DNA from: Candidatus Binatia bacterium
Lineage (GTDB): Bacteria > Desulfobacterota > Binatia > HRBIN30
Assembly (NCBI GenBank): GCA_038245295.1
Contig: JBBRSP010000001.1
Coordinates: 320,001 to 384,000 of the forward strand
DNA length: 64,000 nucleotides
Direction of reading: 5' to 3'
This document shows, piece after piece, positions 349 to 12,540 of this stretch; within the stretch, counting starts at the first letter, position 1, and every line of letters starts with the position of its first letter. The notes under the pieces were generated by a model. It was given only the letters and a program-made list of their open reading frames with translations. It had not been told where the DNA came from and did no database searches. Both the position numbers and the translations under genes were made by a program.

Positions 349-469
349 CAGGAACCCGATCACCGATGCGGCCCGACCGCGGCGGCGCCGAGTGCGCGGC
401 GTCGAATTACGATTTGAAGAAGGAATTGTTGCGCTTGGATCGCATGAGGATTAGAGGAGCAGAAGAGAC

Positions 470-835
470 ATGACGCACCGACGCTCACTGCGCATCGCGA
501 TCCTCTTGAGCCTGACGCTGCTCCTCCAGGCGGCGTACGTCGGTCCGGCGCGTGCCACCGCCAGTGTCCGCGCCATTCATTGCTGCGCCACCCGATGCCA
601 CCATATGCCGTCGCCGGCACGTTCCGCACGATGCTGCGGCGTCGAGCGCGATGAAAGCGGCCTGGCTCCAGCATCAACGATACAACCTCTGCCTGCACCG
701 GCCTTCGCGGCGCTCCTTCCTGTGATCGCTGTAACTTCGCCTCTGTCGCGCACGGGTCTACACTTCGACCCAACGGCGCGCCTGTCGGCGCGTGCCGCGC
801 CAATCTTTCTCCTCACTCTGTCCCTGCGTATCTGA
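470..835 (+). CDS. Exported Cys/His-rich leader protein (CutF/DUF2946-like architecture) upstream of the cus operon
   Basis: Purine-rich RBS region (gaggagcagaagagac), Sec-type signal ending ARA, HCCxxxCHH and CC motifs, C-terminus PIFLLTLSLRI*. Confidence 0.7.
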   Translation: MTHRRSLRIAILLSLTLLLQAAYVGPARATASVRAIHCCATRCHHMPSPARSARCCGVERDESGLAPASTIQPLPAPAFAALLPVIAVTSPLSRTGLHFDPTARLSARAAPIFLLTLSLRI

Positions 836-837
836 GA

Positions 838-959
838 TTCTCCATCCCGGTTCGGGCGTGTCGTTCGTTCGGCACTGCCCGGAGGTGTCTGTTGGCCATC
901 CAACAGGCGGCTGAACGATCCCGTTCGGTCCACGATCAGGCCAGTTTCGGCGTGGAGAG
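838..959 (+). promoter_or_regulatory. Predicted RBS-sequestering multibranch RNA structure between the leader and cusC
   Basis: TCTCCAT-C-CCGG (839-850) pairs with TCGG-C-GTGGAGA (947-958, the SD); inner hairpins ctgttgg/ccaacag and gctgaacg/cgttcggt. Confidence 0.6.
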
Positions 960-964
960 ATGTC

Positions 965-2224
965 ATGAAGCGAGTATTGACTGTCGGGTATTTGGCGGCT
1001 GCCAGCTGCTTGTGGGCGACCCATCCTGCCCAGGCCCAAGGCGACGTGTCCCTCACCCTGGCAAGCGTGATCGAAGTTGCGCGCCAACGAAATCCTGAAA
1101 TCGAGGCGGCACGGCAGCGTGCTACCGGGGCGGCGGCGGTGCCGGCTCGCGTCAGCGCGTATGACGATCCGACCTTCGCATGGGAGGCCTACAACGCGCC
1201 GGAGTCGCTGCGCATCGATCGCGCCGACAACAATATCCTCCGTGTTTCGCAACGTATCCCGTTCCCGGGGAAACGCAGCCTGGCCGGCGTTGTGGCTGAG
1301 CACGATGCCGAGGTCATGCAGCAGGATGTTACCAGCGTCGAGTTGGACGTCGTCACCGCGGTTCGCCGCGCCTACTACGATCTGTGGCTGGCGCATCGGA
1401 CACTGGATCTCTTCGAGCGCGAGAAGTTGTTGCTGCAGCGATTCAGCCACATCGCCGAGCAACGCTACGCCACCAGTGAGGTCACGCAGTCCGACGTCTT
1501 GCGGGCGCAGGTCGAACTCACCCGCACGATCAACCGGATCGCGACGCAACAGTTGGTGATCGACGCGGCACGCGCCGAGTTGAACGCGTTGCTGAGCCGA
1601 GAGCCGGATGATCCGTTGGGCGATCCCGATCCACCACCCGTACCGCGACTCGCCGCGACACCGGTAGCGTGGATGGCGCGCGCACTGAAACAGCGCCCGG
1701 AGCTGGCGGCGCAAACCGCTGTCCTTGCCCGCGAAGACAGCAGTGTCCGTCTGGCGGAGATGAACTACCTGCCGGATTTCGAGTTTACGGTCGGCCGTTT
1801 CTTCAACTACGATCGCAACGATGGCTTCGGCGCCATTGCCTCGGTCACCCTGCCGTTCGTCTACCGCTCGAAGTACGCCGCCGGCATCGCCGAAGCCAAC
1901 GCGCGTGTCGCGGCGGCACAAGCCGACCAACGCAAGCTGAGTGATCGAATCCGCCGCGAGGTGACGCAGAGCTTCGTGAGAGCCCGCACCGCACTGCTGC
2001 AGCGCGAGCTGTTCGTCACCACACACATTCCCCAGGCCGAGCAGGCGTTGCGGGTTACGGAGAGCGCGTATCAAACCGGGACGGTCGACTTCCTGGCCCT
2101 CGTCGATACCGCGCGCAGCATCGAGATGGCGCACGTCGAACACCTGCAAGCCGAGGCGGACTTCCAGAAGGCCTATGCTGATTTGGAGCGCGCCGCCGGC
2201 GTGTTCCCATCGAGCCAGCCGTGA
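965..2224 (+). CDS. cusC: TolC-family outer membrane efflux protein (CusC/CzcC-like)
   Basis: Signal peptide, OEP helical repeats (NPEIEAAR, RPELAA, AYQTGTVDFLALVD), first gene before MFP and RND. Confidence 0.85.
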   Translation: MKRVLTVGYLAAASCLWATHPAQAQGDVSLTLASVIEVARQRNPEIEAARQRATGAAAVPARVSAYDDPTFAWEAYNAPESLRIDRADNNILRVSQRIPFPGKRSLAGVVAEHDAEVMQQDVTSVELDVVTAVRRAYYDLWLAHRTLDLFEREKLLLQRFSHIAEQRYATSEVTQSDVLRAQVELTRTINRIATQQLVIDAARAELNALLSREPDDPLGDPDPPPVPRLAATPVAWMARALKQRPELAAQTAVLAREDSSVRLAEMNYLPDFEFTVGRFFNYDRNDGFGAIASVTLPFVYRSKYAAGIAEANARVAAAQADQRKLSDRIRREVTQSFVRARTALLQRELFVTTHIPQAEQALRVTESAYQTGTVDFLALVDTARSIEMAHVEHLQAEADFQKAYADLERAAGVFPSSQP

Positions 2225-2235
2225 GGCGAGGAGTC

Positions 2236-3474
2236 ATGATCATGCGCGTACGTCGGTTGTTCGTAAGTATCGTCCTGCTTCTGGTCGCCTTTGGTGCGGG
2301 TGTATTTGTTCCGCGGTCGTGGCTGTCGGTTCCATCAACGCCGGACACTCTCGGGTCGGTCACGAAGAAGGAACGTTACCAGTGTGCCATGCACCCGCAG
2401 ATCGTTCGCGACCACCCGGGTAACTGTCCAATCTGTCAGATGACACTGCAACGCGTCGAGGACGGCGAAGTGCTGCCAACTCCGGCCGCGTCTTCCAACG
2501 GCAAGTCGAAGATCCTCTTCTATCGTCACCCGATGCGGGCGGACGTGACGTCCCCCGTCCCCGCGGTCGACGAGATGGGCATGGCCTACATTCCGGTGCG
2601 CGAGGAAGATGTTGGCGGCGGCACAGGAGGGGACGTTCCGGACCACGCGCCATTCACGCTCTCCGTGCAGCGCCAGCAACTCATCGGTGTAACTCGAACA
2701 AAGCTCGAACGGCGCAACCTCGATGTCGAGATTCGCGCCGTCGGCAAGGTTGCGTATGACCCGCAGCTCTATCAGGCGATCAGCGAATACCGTGAGGCGC
2801 GCAAGGCCAATGCGGGAATCGCCGACAGCACTGTCCCTGAGGCTCACGCCGGGGCGAACGCGATGGTGCGCTCGTCGGCGCTGAAGCTGCGACAGATGGG
2901 GATCTCCGAGCAGCAACTGCGCGAGCTGACCGAGAGCGGCGCCTCACCGACCAACCTGTTGCTGCCGGGCAAAAGTGCTTGGATCTATGCCCAGGTTTAC
3001 GAATACGAAATGGACAGCGTGCACCCGGGACAGACGATCGAAGTCACAACACCAGCTCTCCCGGGTCGTACCTTCACCGCCAAGATTGTGGCCGTTGATG
3101 CAATCCTCAATGCCGCGACGCGCACGGTGCGGGTGCGAGCCCTGGTGCAGACTCCGGATACGGTGCTGCGCCCCGAGACCTTCGTGCACGTGAAGATTCG
3201 CGTCCCGTTGGGGGAGAAACTAGCAGTGCCCGAAGACGCGGTTCTCGATACCGGCGAGCACCAGGTTGTCTTTGTCGTCATGGGCGAAGGACATTTCGAG
3301 CCGCGCTCCGTGCAACTAGGTCGAGAAGCGCAGGGCTATTACGAGGTCTTGTCCGGAATCGAGGTCGGTGAAGAAGTCGTCACTTCGGCCAACTTCCTGA
3401 TTGATTCGGAATCGCGCTTTCGCTCGGCCCTCGCCGCTTTTGCCGCGAAACCGCCGGCTGCCCACGCGCACTGA
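2236..3474 (+). CDS. cusB: Efflux RND periplasmic adaptor (CusB family) with N-terminal heavy-metal-binding domain
   Basis: YQCAMHPQIVRDHPGNCPICQMTL, YRHPM...DEMGMAYIPV, C-terminal VVTSANFLIDSES; RBS gaggag before ATG 2236. Confidence 0.9.
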   Translation: MIMRVRRLFVSIVLLLVAFGAGVFVPRSWLSVPSTPDTLGSVTKKERYQCAMHPQIVRDHPGNCPICQMTLQRVEDGEVLPTPAASSNGKSKILFYRHPMRADVTSPVPAVDEMGMAYIPVREEDVGGGTGGDVPDHAPFTLSVQRQQLIGVTRTKLERRNLDVEIRAVGKVAYDPQLYQAISEYREARKANAGIADSTVPEAHAGANAMVRSSALKLRQMGISEQQLRELTESGASPTNLLLPGKSAWIYAQVYEYEMDSVHPGQTIEVTTPALPGRTFTAKIVAVDAILNAATRTVRVRALVQTPDTVLRPETFVHVKIRVPLGEKLAVPEDAVLDTGEHQVVFVVMGEGHFEPRSVQLGREAQGYYEVLSGIEVGEEVVTSANFLIDSESRFRSALAAFAAKPPAAHAH

Positions 3475-3485
3475 GGAGAACGGCG

Positions 3486-6400
3486 ATGGTGGAACGAATC
3501 ATCGAGTTCAGCGCGCACAACAAGTTCCTGGTGTTGTTGCTCACCGCCGTGGCGTTGGTTGGAGCGACCTGGACGGTCCGTACGATCCCGCTCGACGCGA
3601 TTCCCGATCTCTCCGATACACAAGTGATTGTCTACTCGCGCTGGGATCGCAGCCCGGATCTGATCGAGGATCAGGTTACATATCCGATCGTCTCGGCGTT
3701 ACTCGGCGCACCCAAGATCAAGGTTGTCCGCGGCTTCTCCGATTTCGGTTACTCTTACGTCTACGTCATCTTCCAGGACGGCACCGACCTTTACTGGGCG
3801 CGTGCCCGGGTGCTCGAATATCTCAGCAAGATCCTGCCGCGTTTGCCCGAGGGGGTGCAGACCGAGCTCGGCCCCGACGCCACCAGCGTCGGCTGGGTGT
3901 ATCAGTACGCTCTCACCGATCATTCCGGGACGCACGATCTCGCCGAGCTGCGCAGCCTGCAAGACTGGTATCTGCGCTACCATCTACAAGCCGTGCCGGG
4001 TGTGGCCGAGGTGGCGGCGGTGGGTGGGTTCGTCAAGCAGTATCAGGTCAATGTCGATCCGCAGCTACTGCTGGCGTACAATATCCCGCTGACCCAGGTG
4101 CTCGACGCGATTCGCCGCGGCAACAAGGAGGTTGGCGGTCGCGTTCTCGAGTTCGCCGGCACCGAATACATGGTGCGCGGGCGCGGCTACATCAAGTCGA
4201 TCGACGACATCGAGAAGATTGTCGTGTCGACCGATCCGTCGTCGGGCACGCCGGTACAGGTCAAACAGGTTGCGAAGGTGGCGCTGGGGCCGGACATGCG
4301 CCGCGGCGTGGCCGACCTGGACGGGCAGGGCGACACCGTCGGTGGCATCGTTGTCATGCGTCACGGCGAGAATGCGCTCCAGGTCATCGAGCGTGTCAAA
4401 GCGAAGCTCGAAGAGCTCAAACCCAGCCTGCCGGAGGGGGTGGAGATCATTCCGACCTACGACCGTTCCGGCCTCATCGAACACTCCATCGATACGTTGC
4501 TCCATTCTCTGCGCGAGGAGATGATCATCGTCAGCTTCGTGATCTTGCTCTTCCTGTGGCACTTCCCCTCGGCGATCATTCCGATCATCACGATTCCTGT
4601 CTCGGTATTCCTGGCGTTCATCCCGCTCTATCTGATGGGCTTGAGCTCGAACATCATGTCGCTGTCCGGCATCGCCATCTCGATCGGTGTGCTCGTCGAT
4701 GGAGCTATCGTCGAGGTCGAGAATGCCTACAAGCGGCTTGAAGAGTGGATCGAGGGTGGCCGGCAGGGCGACTTCCATCTCGTCCGACTGCAGGCCCTCA
4801 AAGAAGTCGGACCGTCGGTCTTCTTCTCACTGCTGGTGATTGCGATCGCCTTCTTGCCGGTGTTCACGCTGGTCGATCAGGAAGGCCGTCTCTTCAAGCC
4901 ACTCGCCTACTCGAAGAACCTGGCGATGGCGCTCGCGGCTGTCCTCGCGATCACCCTCGATCCCGCATTGCGCATGATGTTCACGCGCATGGACTACGCA
5001 CACTTTCGACCGCGTTGGCTCGCATCGATTGTCAACACGGTGACGGTCGGGCGCTACTACACCGAGGAACGCCACCCGATCAGTCGCGTCTTGTTTGCCG
5101 TCTATGAGCCCGTGTGTCGGTTTGTGTTGCGGCATCGTGTTCTAACGCTGGTGCTTGCGCTGGGCTTGGTGGCATCCACCGTCCCCGTCTATTTCAAGCT
5201 CGGTTCGGAGTTCATGCCGCCGCTCAACGAAGGTGCCTTTCTCTACATGCCGACGGCGTTGCCGGGCATGTCGGTCACTGAGGCGCAGCGCATCCTGCAA
5301 ATCCAGGACAAGATCATCCGCAGCTTCCCGGAAGTGGAGACGGTGTTCGGCAAGGCGGGTAGAGCGACGTCGCCCACCGACCCGGCGCCGTTCTCGATGG
5401 TCGAGACGACGATCATGCTGAAGCCCGAGTCGACGTGGCGGCCGATGCGGCGCTGGTACTCCGACTGGCCGGCTCCGCTGCGCTGGTTGTTTTCGTCGGT
5501 GACGCCGGAGCACATGACGTTTACCGAGCTGCAAGACGACATGGACGCCAAGCTGCGCTTCCCCGGCATCCCGAACATCTGGACCATGCCGATCAAGAAC
5601 CGCATCGACATGCTGTCGACCGGCGTGCGCACGCCGATCGGCATCAAGATCCTCGGCGCCGACCTCAAAGTGATCCAGAAAGTCGGCGAGGATCTCGAAG
5701 GGATCATTCGCGAGATTCCGGGCACGCGAAATGTCATCGCCGAGCGCACCGCCGGTGGGTACTACGTCGACTTCACGCTGAATCGCGACGAGCTGGCACG
5801 CTACGGCCTGTCGATTGAAGACGGACAGACGGTGATCATGTCGGCGATCGGCGGCGAGAACATCACCAATACGATCGAGGGGCGCGAGCGTTACCCGGTG
5901 AACGTCCGCTACGGTCGCGAATTCCGTGACAACATCGATGAGCTGCGGCGCGTCCTGGTGCCGACGGCGTCGGGGGCGCAGGTGCCGCTGGCCCAACTGG
6001 CCGACATCAAATTCTCGGAAGGCCCGTCGATGATTCGCAGCGAGAACGGCCACCTCGCCGGCTACGTGTACGTCGATATGGACAGCACCCGTGATCTTGG
6101 CGGGTATGTGCACGAAGCGAAGAAGCGTGTCGCCAAAGCCCTGCAGCTGCCCAAGGGCTACAGCCTGGTGTGGAGCGGCCAATACGAGAATCTGGCGCGG
6201 GTGCGCGAGCGCTTGAAGATGGTGATCCCGTTGACGCTCTTCCTGATCGCGCTGCTGCTGTACATGAACACCAAATCGGTAGTGAAGGCCGGTATCGTCA
6301 TGCTCGCCGTGCCGTTCTCGCTGATCGGCGCCATCTGGTTGCTCTACGTGCTCGGATACAACACGTCGATTGCCGTCTGGGTCGGCATGATCGCCCTCAT

Positions 6401-6776
6401 GGGTCTTGATGCCGAGACCGGCGTCTTCATGCTGCTGTTTCTGGATCTCGCCTACGACGAACGTGTCCGCAAAGGCACGATGCGAACCTGGACGGATCTC
6501 GAGGAAGCGATCCTGCACGGCGCCGTGAAGCGTGTGCGCCCGAAGATGATGACCGTGATGGCGTCCTTCTTCGGCCTGCTGCCGATCATGTGGTCGATCG
6601 GCGCCGGGTCGGACGTAATGAAACGCATCGCCGCGCCGATGGTAGGTGGGCTTTTCACCTCGTTCCTTCTCGAGCTGCTCGTCTACCCGGTCATCTACTC
6701 GATCTGGAAGTGGCGTTTCGAAATGAAAGGCGGCAGCGTAATCCCACAGCCGGCCTTGATCGGCACGCCCCGCTAG
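3486..6776 (+). CDS. cusA: CusA/SilA-family Cu(I)/Ag(I) RND efflux transporter
   Basis: DAIPDLSDTQVIV, GPDATSVGWVYQY, Met triad (EFMPPLNEG, PFSMVET, RIDML), KRIAAPMVGG. Confidence 0.95.
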   Translation: MVERIIEFSAHNKFLVLLLTAVALVGATWTVRTIPLDAIPDLSDTQVIVYSRWDRSPDLIEDQVTYPIVSALLGAPKIKVVRGFSDFGYSYVYVIFQDGTDLYWARARVLEYLSKILPRLPEGVQTELGPDATSVGWVYQYALTDHSGTHDLAELRSLQDWYLRYHLQAVPGVAEVAAVGGFVKQYQVNVDPQLLLAYNIPLTQVLDAIRRGNKEVGGRVLEFAGTEYMVRGRGYIKSIDDIEKIVVSTDPSSGTPVQVKQVAKVALGPDMRRGVADLDGQGDTVGGIVVMRHGENALQVIERVKAKLEELKPSLPEGVEIIPTYDRSGLIEHSIDTLLHSLREEMIIVSFVILLFLWHFPSAIIPIITIPVSVFLAFIPLYLMGLSSNIMSLSGIAISIGVLVDGAIVEVENAYKRLEEWIEGGRQGDFHLVRLQALKEVGPSVFFSLLVIAIAFLPVFTLVDQEGRLFKPLAYSKNLAMALAAVLAITLDPALRMMFTRMDYAHFRPRWLASIVNTVTVGRYYTEERHPISRVLFAVYEPVCRFVLRHRVLTLVLALGLVASTVPVYFKLGSEFMPPLNEGAFLYMPTALPGMSVTEAQRILQIQDKIIRSFPEVETVFGKAGRATSPTDPAPFSMVETTIMLKPESTWRPMRRWYSDWPAPLRWLFSSVTPEHMTFTELQDDMDAKLRFPGIPNIWTMPIKNRIDMLSTGVRTPIGIKILGADLKVIQKVGEDLEGIIREIPGTRNVIAERTAGGYYVDFTLNRDELARYGLSIEDGQTVIMSAIGGENITNTIEGRERYPVNVRYGREFRDNIDELRRVLVPTASGAQVPLAQLADIKFSEGPSMIRSENGHLAGYVYVDMDSTRDLGGYVHEAKKRVAKALQLPKGYSLVWSGQYENLARVRERLKMVIPLTLFLIALLLYMNTKSVVKAGIVMLAVPFSLIGAIWLLYVLGYNTSIAVWVGMIALMGLDAETGVFMLLFLDLAYDERVRKGTMRTWTDLEEAILHGAVKRVRPKMMTVMASFFGLLPIMWSIGAGSDVMKRIAAPMVGGLFTSFLLELLVYPVIYSIWKWRFEMKGGSVIPQPALIGTPR

Positions 6777-6935
6777 CACTGCTCGTTTCTATGCCCCGGC
6801 GCGGAACAACAATTTGGGAATTGTTGGCCGGCGTGTGGACGGCGTATGGCTTGCGGCCTGACGTGCCCGGTGGCTGGCGATGCCCGCGCGAGTAGCTGGA
6901 GCCTCGTCTCCTTGACGGCTCGAGAACGCTCTCGT

Positions 6936-9260
6936 ATGGCTCCTTCGGTGTCGGAGAGAGCGCCTGAAGTCTATCCAGAACCTCCGACGACGCTGACGCC
7001 GCCGCATTCGCCCTTGGCGGACGAGAATCCACTCGAGGCAGCCTTGAGCATCGGCCTGGCGACGTTCATGTCCACGAGTGCGCTCATTCTGCTGAAGCTG
7101 CTCGTAACAAAGACGTTTTCTGTTCCCACGTTGAACTTCGGTGGTCGCGGTCCGCAGCTCCTTTCGCTTGCCCAGGGTGTGCTCGTCACACCAGGGGTTG
7201 TAGCCTTGATCACCGTGGGCGCAGTCCTCCTCGGGCGATTCTATGCACGATTGGTTGGAGAGGGGTCGCTGGGATCCATCCTGACCGCCTCACTCGCCGG
7301 CATCGCCGGCGCGATCGCCATGGTTCCGGTGCTCGGACGAGAGGCCGACAGCACGCGGATGCCGTTGGTTATCCTGATCCCGATCCTGCTGGGCATTGCC
7401 GCACTGGTTTGTCATCAGAGTCGACTGGTCACGCGCGGGGTCCTCTTCAGCGCCTGTTTGCCCGGGGCACTGTTCGCGTACAGTCTTGCGTCGCTGTTGG
7501 ACAGTGAAGGAATCACCGCCGCCTTTCCGCTGAACTCGGAGCTGGCGCGACAAGGAGTTGCTGCCCTGGGCGGGCTCCTCATCGGGCACCTTGTTGCCTT
7601 CCTTCTTCCGACGGTCATTGGGGTGCTCTTGCTGTCCGGCTGGGGGCAGCAGTGGGCATGGCGCAGCCTTCTTGCTTTTGGCCTCATGGGTGCGGCCGCG
7701 TGGATGGTATTGATCCTGGACAATATCCTCGAGCCGCTGCTCGCTTTCCCTGGCCTCTTCGATTTTCGTTTCGCCATCGAGCTGCTGGCGATCCTCATGG
7801 GCGCGGCGGGTGTCGGCCTGTTGTTGAGTCGCGGCCGGGCGCAAGCAGGGGCCGCTGGCGTTGCCATCGCACTGGCGCTAGCCGCCGTCCCACTTCCGAT
7901 CACCCCAAAGGCAGCAATGTATTCTTCGGGAATGGCCATCGACGTGTGGGTTCGGCGTTCCTACTCGGAAGTCTTCGACCGCGACGGGGATGGAGCATCG
8001 ACCTTGTTCGGGGAGGGGGATTGCGATGATCACAATGCCGCCATCCGTCCCGGCCGCCCCGACGTCCCGTTCAACGGCATCGATGAAAACTGTTTGGCGG
8101 GCGACCTGCAGCAGGCGGATGTACCCCCGAATCGGTGGCAGATCACCCATCCGGCATCAGCCAACCACAGCATTCTTCTGGTCACGGTCGATACGCTACG
8201 CTCCGACATCGTGTTCGGAGCAAATGGGACAATGCCGCGTTTGCGCAGCTTCGCCCAACGCCACGGTGGATTCGACAATGCTCACGCTCTCGGCGGCGCC
8301 ACCGCTTTTGGCCTTCTCAATCTCTTCTACACGGAAGAGATCTCACCCTACGCTCTGCCGCGTCATCGCAACCTTCCGAGTTATATGAAGGAGGCGGGCT
8401 ATCGAACACTGTGCATCTACCCGACCTACCGCGCCGCATCCGTGGATGTGCCTACGACGATCTTTCAGGAATGCGATCTGGCCGAGGTTGTTGCCGGCGA
8501 CGACAAGGCGCGCATCCCTTCCGGGCAGGAAGTGATCGAGCGGGCGCTCTTGCGCATGAATCAAATTGCTGGGAACAAGTTCGTCTGGATACAGCTCGAC
8601 GACCTTCACGACTACGTCGTGTACCGTCCCGGTAAAGGCTACAAAAGCTACTACTTGTTCGATGGCCTTTCGTCGCTGGGCTCGTATCAGACCCTACGAT
8701 CCTACTTGCTCGCCAAGTATCGCGAGCGCGCTGCCTATCTCGACCGAGTCTTGGATGAACAGATCCTGTCTCGCTTCGAGAACGACCCCGCATTCGCCGA
8801 CACTCTTCTGATCTTGACCGGTGATCACGGCGAGGAGTTCCTGGAGCACGGCGGCATCTTTCATGGCTCAACTCTTTACGAAGAGCTGACGCGTGTCCCG
8901 ATCGTCTTCTCGGATGGCCAGGCCGGAGAGATCTACCATCACCCAATGGCTCATCAGGACGCCGTCAAGAGCATGATGGCGTACGCCGGCTTCGAGCGTT
9001 TTCCCGAGCCGGCAACAACCTTGCGCACACCGCCCAGCGACGACCGTGTCCTCGTCGGATTGATGGTCAGCAACGGCCTCTTCTCTGTACGCCGCGGCAG
9101 GTACAAACTCATTCTGAACTTCTTCACCGGCGCTGAGATGTTGTTCGACCTCGTCGACGATCCAGGGGAGACACGCGACCGGAGCGGTGATCTTCCGCAG
9201 GTTGCGGCTGAGTTTAGGACGCTGGCCGACATCGAAGAGCGCCGGATCATCAAGCGCTAG
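6936..9260 (+). CDS. Multi-pass membrane protein with a C-terminal sulfatase/alkaline-phosphatase-superfamily domain and a MopE-like DxDGDG-DCDD-NGIDENC motif
   Basis: About 9 hydrophobic helices; ILLVTVDTLRSD, TGDHGEEFLEHGGIFHG, LYEELTRVP, LFDLVDDPGE; start uncertain (6846 or 6936). Confidence 0.8.
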   Translation: MAPSVSERAPEVYPEPPTTLTPPHSPLADENPLEAALSIGLATFMSTSALILLKLLVTKTFSVPTLNFGGRGPQLLSLAQGVLVTPGVVALITVGAVLLGRFYARLVGEGSLGSILTASLAGIAGAIAMVPVLGREADSTRMPLVILIPILLGIAALVCHQSRLVTRGVLFSACLPGALFAYSLASLLDSEGITAAFPLNSELARQGVAALGGLLIGHLVAFLLPTVIGVLLLSGWGQQWAWRSLLAFGLMGAAAWMVLILDNILEPLLAFPGLFDFRFAIELLAILMGAAGVGLLLSRGRAQAGAAGVAIALALAAVPLPITPKAAMYSSGMAIDVWVRRSYSEVFDRDGDGASTLFGEGDCDDHNAAIRPGRPDVPFNGIDENCLAGDLQQADVPPNRWQITHPASANHSILLVTVDTLRSDIVFGANGTMPRLRSFAQRHGGFDNAHALGGATAFGLLNLFYTEEISPYALPRHRNLPSYMKEAGYRTLCIYPTYRAASVDVPTTIFQECDLAEVVAGDDKARIPSGQEVIERALLRMNQIAGNKFVWIQLDDLHDYVVYRPGKGYKSYYLFDGLSSLGSYQTLRSYLLAKYRERAAYLDRVLDEQILSRFENDPAFADTLLILTGDHGEEFLEHGGIFHGSTLYEELTRVPIVFSDGQAGEIYHHPMAHQDAVKSMMAYAGFERFPEPATTLRTPPSDDRVLVGLMVSNGLFSVRRGRYKLILNFFTGAEMLFDLVDDPGETRDRSGDLPQVAAEFRTLADIEERRIIKR

Positions 9261-9680: not shown

Positions 9681-11132
9681 ATGACGCGCCTCAGTCGTCG
9701 CGATGTTCTCAAGCTCGGCGGGTTGGCGCTGACAGCACCATACCTCGGAAGTCCTCGTTGGGCGCGCGGGTTGACCGCCGTCGGGTCGTTTCCTGTTCCG
9801 CCTCGTTTGCCTCTGATCCGCCCCGAGCCCGGATTGGTCGAGGCTGAGTTGAGCGCGGCATGGACGCAGTCTGCCGTCGCCGGCACGACGGCGCGGCTGC
9901 AGACCTACAACGGTAGTTTCCCGGGCCCGATCCTGCGCCTGCGCGAAGGCGAACGGGTTCGCCTCTGGTTCACCAACAACCTGGGTGAGCCGAGCAACTT
10001 GCACATGCATGGACTGCATGTGCCGCCGAGCATCGATAATCCATTTCTCTCGGTCTCACCGGGCGAGACCACCGTCTACGAATTCGACGTTCCGGCGAAT
10101 TCGGCGGGCACGTACTGGTATCATCCGCATCTGCACATGCGCGTCGCCCGCCAGCTCTTTGGTGGGCTTGCTGGCGTCATCGTCGTCGAGGGCCGCATGG
10201 ACCGGCAGTTGCGCCGGCGCGGTGCCGACGAATACGTCGTCGTGCTCAAGGACCTTTCCCTGGTCAACGGCGCGCCGGAAGCCCATAACCCGTTCGATTG
10301 GATGAGCGGCAAGGAAGGCAATCTCCTGCTGGTGAACGGTGCCGTGCAGCCCGTGCTGGTGCCGCGCACGAGCCTGCTGCGCCTGCGGTTGCTAAACGCC
10401 AGCAACGCGCGTTACTACCGCCTCGCCCTGGAAGGCCATCCGCTGTTTCTGATCGCCACCGACGGCGGCTTCATCGACCAGCCGATCGAGCTCAATGAGT
10501 TGCTTCTCGCTCCGGGCGAACGGGCCGACGTGCTGGTACAGCTCAATACGGCCGGAAACTTCCGTCTCCTCAATCTTCCCTATGATCGCGGCAGTGGTCA
10601 CGGGATGGGTGGAATGCACGGCGGCGGTCACATGGGTGGCATGCATGGAGGTAGCACGGGAAGCACGGCGGCCCCGGATGTCCTCATGACCATCGCGGCT
10701 GGTGAAAACCCACCACGATCGCTTCCCTCACGTGTAGGCCTGGTCGAGCCTCTGGCCCCGGCACCAGGCGACGTCCACCGTCGCCTGGTGCTCGGCGAGG
10801 CGATGATGGGATTCCAGTTCTACCTCAACGGGCGGACCTTCGACGAGGCACGCATCGACTTCCAGGGACGGCTAGGAGATCTCGAGGTGTGGGAGATCGA
10901 CAATCGCACCGGCATGGATCACCCGATGCATCTCCATACATATCCCTTCCAGGTTTTGTCTCGGAATGGCGTCCCCGAGGCCCTGCGCGCCTGGAAAGAT
11001 GTGGTCAACGTGAGGGCAGGGGAGGTTGTTCGCATCGCCGTGCCGCTTCGGGATTTCACCGGCAAGACGGTCTACCACTGCCACATCGTCGAACACGAAG
11101 ATCGCGGCATGATGGGCGTTCTTGCGGTGTAG
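9681..11132 (+). CDS. Tat-exported three-domain multicopper oxidase (CueO/laccase-like)
   Basis: SRRDVLK twin-arginine signal; HMHGLH, WYHPHLH, HPMHLH, YHCHIVEHEDRGMM; Gly/Met/His-rich insert; RBS aggagg. Confidence 0.92.
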   Translation: MTRLSRRDVLKLGGLALTAPYLGSPRWARGLTAVGSFPVPPRLPLIRPEPGLVEAELSAAWTQSAVAGTTARLQTYNGSFPGPILRLREGERVRLWFTNNLGEPSNLHMHGLHVPPSIDNPFLSVSPGETTVYEFDVPANSAGTYWYHPHLHMRVARQLFGGLAGVIVVEGRMDRQLRRRGADEYVVVLKDLSLVNGAPEAHNPFDWMSGKEGNLLLVNGAVQPVLVPRTSLLRLRLLNASNARYYRLALEGHPLFLIATDGGFIDQPIELNELLLAPGERADVLVQLNTAGNFRLLNLPYDRGSGHGMGGMHGGGHMGGMHGGSTGSTAAPDVLMTIAAGENPPRSLPSRVGLVEPLAPAPGDVHRRLVLGEAMMGFQFYLNGRTFDEARIDFQGRLGDLEVWEIDNRTGMDHPMHLHTYPFQVLSRNGVPEALRAWKDVVNVRAGEVVRIAVPLRDFTGKTVYHCHIVEHEDRGMMGVLAV

Positions 11133-12052: not shown

Positions 12053-12147
12053 GGCTGCCGGGCTTCGTCGCCTTGTCCTCCCGCGCCCGAACTTAGCCAC
12101 TTGTTGGAATGACATTTGCGCGTAGGGTTGGGCAAAGGAGCCGAAAA

Positions 12148-12540
12148 ATGTCCATCTCACACAAATGTCGTACGGCGATCGGGTATAGCCTCGGGGTTGT
12201 CGGCCTCGTAGCTCTCACGAGTATCGGTTCGGGGAGCGCCGCGTTGGCGCAGGGTGCGGGGCCGGTGACCGACGCCAACGTGGTCGAGCGCGTAGTCAAT
12301 ATGAAAACCCCCGCCGATCACACGGCCATTGCCGACTACTATCAGGCGAAGGCCGCGACCGCTGCCACCGAGGTGACGCGGCACGAGGCGATGGTGAAGT
12401 CGTACGAGAACATGGGCAACCCGGCCAAGCAGATGGCGGCCCACTGCGGGCGTCTCCTCGACGCTGCCAAGAAGGAACATGCCGAGTATGAGTCCTTGGC
12501 CAAGGACCATGCCGCCATGGCGGCGGCCGCGAAGAAGTAG
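12148..12540 (+). CDS. Secreted helical His/Met-containing protein
   Basis: RBS aaaggag, signal ending ALA, ADHTAIADYY...HEAM...MAAHC...HAAM. Confidence 0.8.
   Translation: MSISHKCRTAIGYSLGVVGLVALTSIGSGSAALAQGAGPVTDANVVERVVNMKTPADHTAIADYYQAKAATAATEVTRHEAMVKSYENMGNPAKQMAAHCGRLLDAAKKEHAEYESLAKDHAAMAAAAKK

Follow-up and report, generated by a model that had tools for sequence, protein, structure and literature searches.

Heavy-metal RND efflux pumps are usually regarded as being under transcriptional control. The cusCBA-like operon described here lies in a 64,000-nucleotide stretch of a Candidatus Binatia contig (JBBRSP010000001.1, positions 320,001 to 384,000 of the forward strand; hereafter the window), and it raises the question of whether such a pump can be controlled in cis at the level of translation and, if so, by what input. 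A first-pass annotation had proposed that a multibranched RNA hides the cusC ribosome-binding site (RBS), and that the lack of a U-tract speaks for translational rather than termination control. We find that the helix predicted to cover this site starts from the stop codon of an upstream leader open reading frame (ORF), that this anchoring is kept across homologous loci, and we consider it highly probable that translation of cusCBA is gated by the leader. Taken with its relatives, the locus points to control of the pump in cis and at the level of translation by an unannotated leader family that falls outside every Pfam and NCBIfam profile. The features of the locus are collected in Table 1.

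Table 1. Features of the leader, the intergenic structure and the pump operon (window positions)
Feature	Position	Strand	Basis or remark
SD-like AGAGGAG of leader ORF	453..459	+	read from sequence, 10 nt 5' of ATG 470
Leader ORF, 121 aa, CutF/CruR-like, without Pfam or NCBIfam family	470..835	+	
N-terminus resembling a signal peptide, with basic start, hydrophobic helix and A-x-A (residues 27-29)	470..556	+	export inferred
First Cys site, C38-C39 and C43 (CCxxxC)	581..598	+	aligned leaders
Second Cys pair, C55-C56, 56 residues ahead of motif Pro	632..637	+	aligned leaders
RAAP, RAGP/RAPP-like candidate arrest motif, 10 codons ahead of stop	791..802	+	
Hydrophobic 10-residue tail in register with stop, plus stop codon	803..835	+	
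Closing helix, 5' arm: last leader codons, stop, anti-SD (837-850)	827..850	+	predicted fold
Closing helix, 3' arm: SD 952-959, cusC AUG 965-967	947..972	+	predicted fold
Inner hairpin 1	852..882	+	pair probabilities 0.8-0.98
Inner hairpin 2	886..909	+	probabilities 0.97-1.0 for 887-895/900-908
Inner hairpin 3; core at 913-926, whole hairpin in opened model	909..930	+	predicted fold
cusC-like outer-membrane factor	965..2224	+	OEP PF02321
cusB-like adaptor with heavy-metal-binding domain	2221..3474	+	true start probably 2236 or 2242
CusA-type heavy-metal RND pump	3486..6776	+	TIGR00914 above cut-off

The pump operon and its surroundings

The RND pump passes the CusA/CzcA cut-off, scores 1042 bits against E. 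coli CusA compared with 489 bits against ZneA, and has Met588, Met638 and Met709 aligned with Met residues of E. coli CusA, which we take to be the Cu(I)/Ag(I) site. Based on these three features of its sequence, the pump likely exports copper or silver. In named records, cusC has its two closest orthologues in a Deltaproteobacteria MAG and in Ca. Binatia.

Several other features were observed around the operon. Two copies of a short REP-like imperfect palindrome lie upstream (263-283 and 326-348), a pattern that occurs at 35 places in the genome, often paired approximately 65 nt apart. Directly after cusA is a gene for a membrane-anchored sulfatase-domain protein with a putative MopE-type metal-binding motif (6846-9260). 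A multicopper oxidase whose start is twin-arginine-like and which has a loop rich in His and Met is encoded at 9682-11132, and a small exported helical protein, resembling one encoded before cusC in homologous locus L025, at 12109-12540; with these two, the region resembles a wider copper island.

A predicted long-range helix covers the cusC start

The pairing claimed between 838-850 and 947-959 was recounted exactly as described, with 12 of 13 positions paired including G-U pairs, and a C-C opposition at 846/951 as the sole mismatch. The SD-like GTGGAGAG of cusC is found at 952-959. On the + strand, the 820-980 region folds at -70.5 kcal/mol (z -3.50, equaled by 0/200 shuffles), compared with a weaker fold for the - strand (z -1.70, 16/200 shuffles), and the wider 740-1000 region gives a z of -2.17 (4/200 shuffles). 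In the computed ensemble, the core SD pairs (840-844 with 953-957) have probabilities of 0.99-1.0, in keeping with a hidden RBS, but the helix is longer than had been proposed: 827-837 pairs with 961-972 at probabilities of 0.83-1.0. The leader stop codon (833-835) is thereby predicted to pair with the bases immediately 5' of the cusC AUG, and AUG 965 to be buried as well. All six arms of the three enclosed hairpins are present (853-862/871-881, 887-895/900-908 and 909-917/922-930), although the third is firm in the closed fold only at 913-917/922-926, and its full 909-930 form is modeled only with 818-845 blocked by a ribosome.

The absence of a U-tract 3' of the closing helix was confirmed, and a terminator scan gave two weak sites against 1.0 +/- 1.0 by chance. 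A search of positions 1-1500 found no sigma-70-like promoter, and DNA contigs aligned over 300-1400 show no variant letters. When the fold was compared with and without the region that a ribosome would cover, as the first-pass annotation had suggested, opening of the SD region was modeled to cost 8-11 kcal/mol in naked RNA and approximately 4 kcal/mol with a ribosome over the last leader codons. A scan of ribosome positions gave 10.5 kcal/mol with the P-site at the RAAP motif and 3.6-4.3 kcal/mol at codons 119 to the stop, with a ribosome reach of +12 to +18 nt being an assumption of these models. The modeled costs support translational rather than termination control. The first-pass annotation is incomplete in naming no input, which a conserved leader ORF lying upstream would supply; the inner hairpins that it drew attention to are unconserved.

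The interior of the structure and the riboswitch question

Three inner hairpins precede a metal efflux operon, and the NiCo riboswitch (RF02683) likewise places a multi-way junction ahead of metal exporters, raising the idea of a metal-binding riboswitch with a NiCo-like four-way junction. Unlike that riboswitch, the cusC structure gives no covariance match and has no conserved junction nucleotides: Rfam returned no match for the 836-964 locus or for 20 homologous loci, and a dedicated NiCo search found nothing at this place. Among 20 loci of the same class, no interior column is invariant, and folds with as few as 1 and as many as 5 hairpins occur among loci; the set of three inner hairpins is not conserved. 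RNAalifold recovered 0 pairs from 23 loci of the class in which the motif Pro lies 12-13 residues from the leader end (described below), since the interiors do not align, and 19 pairs from the 14 closest loci, six of them with a two-sided change; the covariation term was weak (-0.28). Given the blank Rfam and NiCo searches, the unconserved interior and the varying hairpin count, we reject a riboswitch as highly unlikely. At a relaxed threshold of E<=10, Rfam gave two chance matches, both outside the structure.

The leader ORF

The leader ends where the structure begins: its stop abuts the anti-SD, and 129 nt separate leader and cusC. Reading from the N-terminus, a signal-like segment is followed by CCxxxC and then CC, after which come a free linker, RAAP and a hydrophobic tail of ten residues. 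The N-terminus has a hydropathy of 2.4 and is predicted by AlphaFold2 to form a helix at residues 3-24 (pLDDT >90 for residues 1-20), and the leader is probably exported. AlphaFold2 predicts no compact fold for the whole protein (pTM 0.33). C39, C55 and C56 are invariant in 99 aligned leaders, C38 and P111 are present in at least 90%, and the Cys pairs would bind metal. Compared with the Pfam and NCBIfam profiles, the ORF matched no family.

A heuristic search placed a leader before 23/30 cusC-like loci. A profile of these leaders found homologues in 53/401 genomes of the class, including a broken match of 41 aa, and matched 345 clusters (50% identity, E<=0.001). From the opposite direction, in 30 scanned loci of the 52 analyzed below, the gene following the leader encodes an OEP in 23 and a family-less protein of 91-102 aa in seven, one of which may reflect a wrong start. 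A scan of the genome for further leaders of this CC..CC type returned only the 470-835 ORF, and no such leader precedes the multicopper oxidase gene at 9682.

Variants of the arrangement were also seen. An exported, family-less protein of 89-102 aa is encoded between leader and cusC in L079 (1330-1605), L087 (782-1057) and several metagenome loci; this small protein is found in the two closest orthologues, where it inherits the clamp, and is absent from the 470-965 locus. Loci L053, L069 and L090 carry a divergent leader type with an FKLP-like ending, no PP and fewer Cys, and show weak stop-anchored pairing.

Stop-anchored pairing is kept across homologous loci

Of 58 profile matches, 56 were fetched and four dropped, because of the lack of a real leader (L091), a near-copy (L074) or long or ambiguous spacing (L063 and L077), leaving 52 loci. 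Starts of cusC were chosen by SD strength, with that of L071 set by hand; L059 counts as a miss because its start was mended only after scoring. The controls were 147 same-strand gene pairs from the window's own genome with gaps of 66-150 nt and a strong SD. Pairing was called stop-anchored when at least 4 of 11 SD-region bases paired within 15 nt of the upstream stop. By this measure, the SD region is anchored at the leader stop in 44/52 homologous loci compared with 8/147 control pairs. The median modeled cost of opening the SD is 10.9 kcal/mol for naked RNA (5.8 in controls), 11.3 with a ribosome placed 11 codons short of the stop (6.0 in controls) and 5.0 with a ribosome at the stop (6.0 in controls). 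A ribosome at the stop lowers the modeled cost by at least 3 kcal/mol in 41/52 loci but in only 5/147 controls, and the same drop is obtained in 1/52 loci when the ribosome stands 11 codons earlier, at the Pro motif. As the relatives are not independent, these family counts are to be read as tallies and not as p-values.

A second sample consisted of 80 metagenome loci chosen by cusC similarity (the best 80 of 247). Among the 54 of these with enough upstream DNA, 36 have a leader within 1.2 kb, and in the 33 that were non-redundant and scorable, again from the best 80 of 247, 28 are stop-anchored and 26 show the drop. Anti-SD and RBS pair better with their own partner than with swapped ones in 21/26 and 18/21 cases, by approximately 3.7 kcal/mol and with no such gap in controls, although the own partner is the single best in only 3/26 and 3/21, and 3/20 foreign RBS segments pair with the window's arm better than its own RBS does.

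In favor of chance folding of GC-rich DNA, 9/147 controls are as hard to open at the SD and 12/147 have as strong a stop/RBS duplex. However, 0/147 match the window in stop-anchored pairing or in the ribosome-induced drop, and the anchoring recurs in homologues that cannot be aligned. At the level of the family chance is refuted, and we give it a negligible probability.

The proline motif, the spacer and the tail

The distinctive trait of the family is a spacer of 10-13 codons between the Pro motif and the stop. PP is present in 176/229 scored homologues. Where it has been lost, an Arg appears three residues before the Pro (29/53 leaders without PP, compared with 2/176 with PP), yielding RAAP, RAGP and RASP, which resemble the SecM core; the 53 leaders without PP include 10 with RAAP, six with RAGP, six with RASP and three with RGAP, and 24 lack the Arg.

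The leaders fall into two classes. In the first, 12-13 residues separate the Pro from the end, the anti-SD falls within the final Leu codons (centered at about -3) and those codons are CTC 46 times versus CTG 14 times. In the second, to which the window's leader belongs, the Pro is 10-11 residues from the end, the anti-SD lies just past the stop (centered at about +8) and the last codons have no RNA-type codon bias of this kind. Ungapped counts by codon position in six pairs of close leaders gave a mixed picture. The spacer is longer where the anti-SD falls inside the ORF. In the model, opening of the SD begins at about codon -6 for leaders of the first class and at -3 to -2 for those of the second, and the Pro codon is at least 25 nt from the anti-SD in 47/47 loci scored (of 52). 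The hydrophobic residues of the tail, at -10, -9, -3 and -1, hold their register with the stop across spacers of 10-13, while the Pro slides over those 10-13 residues. All three stop codons are used.

How the leader might gate cusC

Given that the helix hiding the SD is anchored at the leader stop, the pump is likely made only once a ribosome finishes the leader. We propose that the long-range helix would tie the leader stop region to the cusC SD and AUG, that a ribosome reaching the last leader codons would open it, and that ribosomes would be held ten codons earlier, at RAAP, with the pump off. Periplasmic copper on the leader Cys pairs would then free the arrested ribosome, which would run to the stop, and cusC initiation would be coupled to leader termination. 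The 10-13 codon spacer would keep the arrested ribosome beyond reach of the helix, such that release means ON. Which ribosome positions open the SD is a computed result; export, metal binding, the arrest at RAAP, its relief by metal and the coupling to termination are what we infer. We favor this account tentatively, and rank it above the alternatives that follow, while holding it to be far from certain. Extended to the family, with the spacer setting the sign of regulation and an RxxP or PP arrest parking the ribosome out of reach until metal release unlocks the SD, the proposal is slightly more tentative again.

In its favor, only a ribosome at the last codons opens the SD in the model, and the leader's own motif resembles a known arrest core; in CruR, copper is known to relieve arrest. 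In addition, the distance from the second CC to the Pro is equal in the two classes (56.8 and 56.1 residues, 12- and 10-spacer class), whereas that to the stop is not (69.8 versus 67.1), an argument that rests on two related clades and that a single indel could produce. Against it stand the 24 leaders that have neither PP nor the Arg, and the need of CutF for its Pro repeat (below). The register of the tail with the stop and the bias-free last codons of the 10-spacer class would, moreover, suit a late or termination stall. In such a scheme, of the type described for CutF, metal on the exported Cys pairs would prolong dwell at the last codons or at termination by way of the tail, and so hold the helix open; copper-prolonged stalling that melts an SD stem-loop has a precedent there, in the accessible text of PMC9973294. 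This scheme, too, fits the modeled opening of the SD by late ribosome positions alone, and it fits the existence of leaders with neither PP nor Arg. It gives no reason for the conservation of a Pro motif whose distance from the stop varies over 10-13 residues. The distance from the second CC to the stop also differs between classes, no particular stop codon is kept, the tail codons of the 12-spacer class are the anti-SD itself, and, given the specificity of PDZ proteases, the tail could be a C-terminal degron. A late stall is the strongest of the rivals and only somewhat less probable than arrest and release.

Metal would turn the pump on in both of these schemes, and they share a caveat from the modeling: if the upstream RNA is kept, the C/U tract at 804-810 re-pairs with the SD (6.4 versus 13.2 kcal/mol). 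The Phe-Leu-Leu codons of the tail (804-814) thereby give the RNA another C/U tract that resembles an anti-SD, lying 5' of the first by about the length of a ribosome.

Ribosome position might instead govern Rho-dependent termination, as in CruR, and the SD helix would then serve as a second, subordinate lock. The genome encodes rho, and the sequence from -36 to +15 around the leader stop is C-rich and G-poor (C/G 2.24, compared with 0.91 in controls). Yet this stretch is approximately 50 nt, is accounted for by Pro, Leu, Thr and Ser codons plus the anti-SD, and is followed by strongly folded intergenic RNA, making Rho control distinctly improbable. More plainly, the ORF might encode a CzcI-like periplasmic metal-binding protein, with the helix doing no more than couple cusC to it and with metal control exerted transcriptionally elsewhere. 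Every RNA result fits this equally, arrest is a candidate only, and one homologue has a weak CzcI match (E 0.0024, far below the cut-off). The Pro motif, the tail and the CC-to-Pro distance are nevertheless conserved amid an otherwise free linker, the lack of a predicted compact fold does not suggest such a protein, and no regulator gene was seen among the ORFs scanned in the 8 kb upstream. We regard plain coupling as improbable, though less so than Rho control.

Comparison with known systems

The cusC clamp is best explained as the RNA half of leader-peptide control, a kind of regulation that has already been described. Small CC/PP proteins comparable with the leader include HYC_CC_PP (NF047658), CzcI (NF045614), DUF8199 and DUF6769. 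As a lead, the nearest named clusters by language-model features are DUF8199 (0.94), DUF2946 (0.93) and DUF6769 (0.93). HYC_CC_PP and CzcI each gave a sub-threshold match in 1/94 homologues; NF047658 (cut-off 28) did not match the window's leader, and its best homologue scored 17.6 bits. In the case of DUF2946 (PF11162), no family was assigned to the leader, 0/23 members matched and hhalign gave 0.4%. The leader would work like CutF and CruR but is no DUF2946 member.

The match to the DUF2946 profile in this genome is a different gene (G000:C4:132105-132450, - strand; L173:5107-5451). It is a true DUF2946 leader with CxxC, RAPP three residues from the end and 26.3 bits, above the cut-off, and it lies 94 nt ahead of a gene for a 518-aa signal-bearing protein without a Pfam family. 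There, too, the intergenic RNA can mask the SD, but the fold is ambiguous and depends on the window folded, and for this reason the locus cannot be used to calibrate ribosome reach.

SecM, ApdA and ApdP share with the leader a signal peptide (putative in the leader), an R-x-x-P core and a downstream SD helix, as presented in the available parts of PMC10951233 and PMC12992588. RAGP and HGPP are described as arrest cores in the accessible text of PMC12992588, in which RAAP has 0 occurrences, and RAGP-type cores stall with Pro at the A-site according to the available portion of PMC10951233. The differences, as far as these partial texts go, are that their stalled ribosome opens the helix, while the window's motif is modeled to be out of reach, and that they monitor secretion and not metal.

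The survey of CutF-like leaders set as rules, in the accessible portion of PMC9973294, a length of <150 aa, a same-strand neighbor within 1000 nt, a metal-homeostasis neighbor, a Sec signal peptide and PP within the last 15 residues; it sorts the leaders into 29 clusters, reports OEP/CusC genes as the commonest neighbors and leaves the mode of action of most such leaders open. With 121 aa and a same-strand OEP gene 129 nt away, the window's leader falls within the rules for size, distance and neighbor, but its RAAP does not pass the PP filter. Many of its homologues may nonetheless be in the survey lists, as OEP neighbors are the commonest there and PP was admitted up to 15 residues from the end. 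In our search of open text and passages, neither a spacer-inverted leader nor the CC..CC family was the subject of any paper.

CutF-cutO of Rhodobacter capsulatus and the present locus both have a small Cys leader that is exported (probably so here), a Pro motif near the C-terminus and an intergenic structure that, here computationally, shields the downstream SD. However, the Pro motif of CutF is PPP and lies two residues before the end, as opposed to a single-Pro RAAP ten residues before it, and the window's locus is set apart by two CC pairs and by a long-range multibranch helix over 129 nt. In the CutF mechanism, a ribosome at the Pro motif can melt the structure; in our models, a ribosome there opens the SD in a single locus of the 52, and with RAAP in the window the cost stays at 10.5 kcal/mol. 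Loss of the Pro repeat abolished downstream expression in CutF, in the available text of bioRxiv 10.1101/2025.02.05.636593, so that passing ribosomes are insufficient there.

CruR (Bp2923) of Bordetella pertussis, in which copper relieves arrest according to the accessible part of PMC9426467, resembles the leader in having a Cys motif and a RAPP-type motif at conserved spacing, with metal proposed to relieve arrest. Its output is different, namely Rho-dependent termination and repression of an importer, and CruR/DUF2946 proteins have CxxC, RAPP three residues from the end and a spacing of 45, compared with CCxxxC plus CC, RAAP ten from the end and a spacing of 56 in the window's leader. The geometry of the leader family bears on whether identical parts could be connected to give the opposite regulatory outcome. 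If our tentative reading is true, the family would join the input of CruR, in which metal relieves arrest, to the output of CutF, in which an SD is unmasked, and would turn around the common scheme in which a stalled ribosome exposes the next gene.
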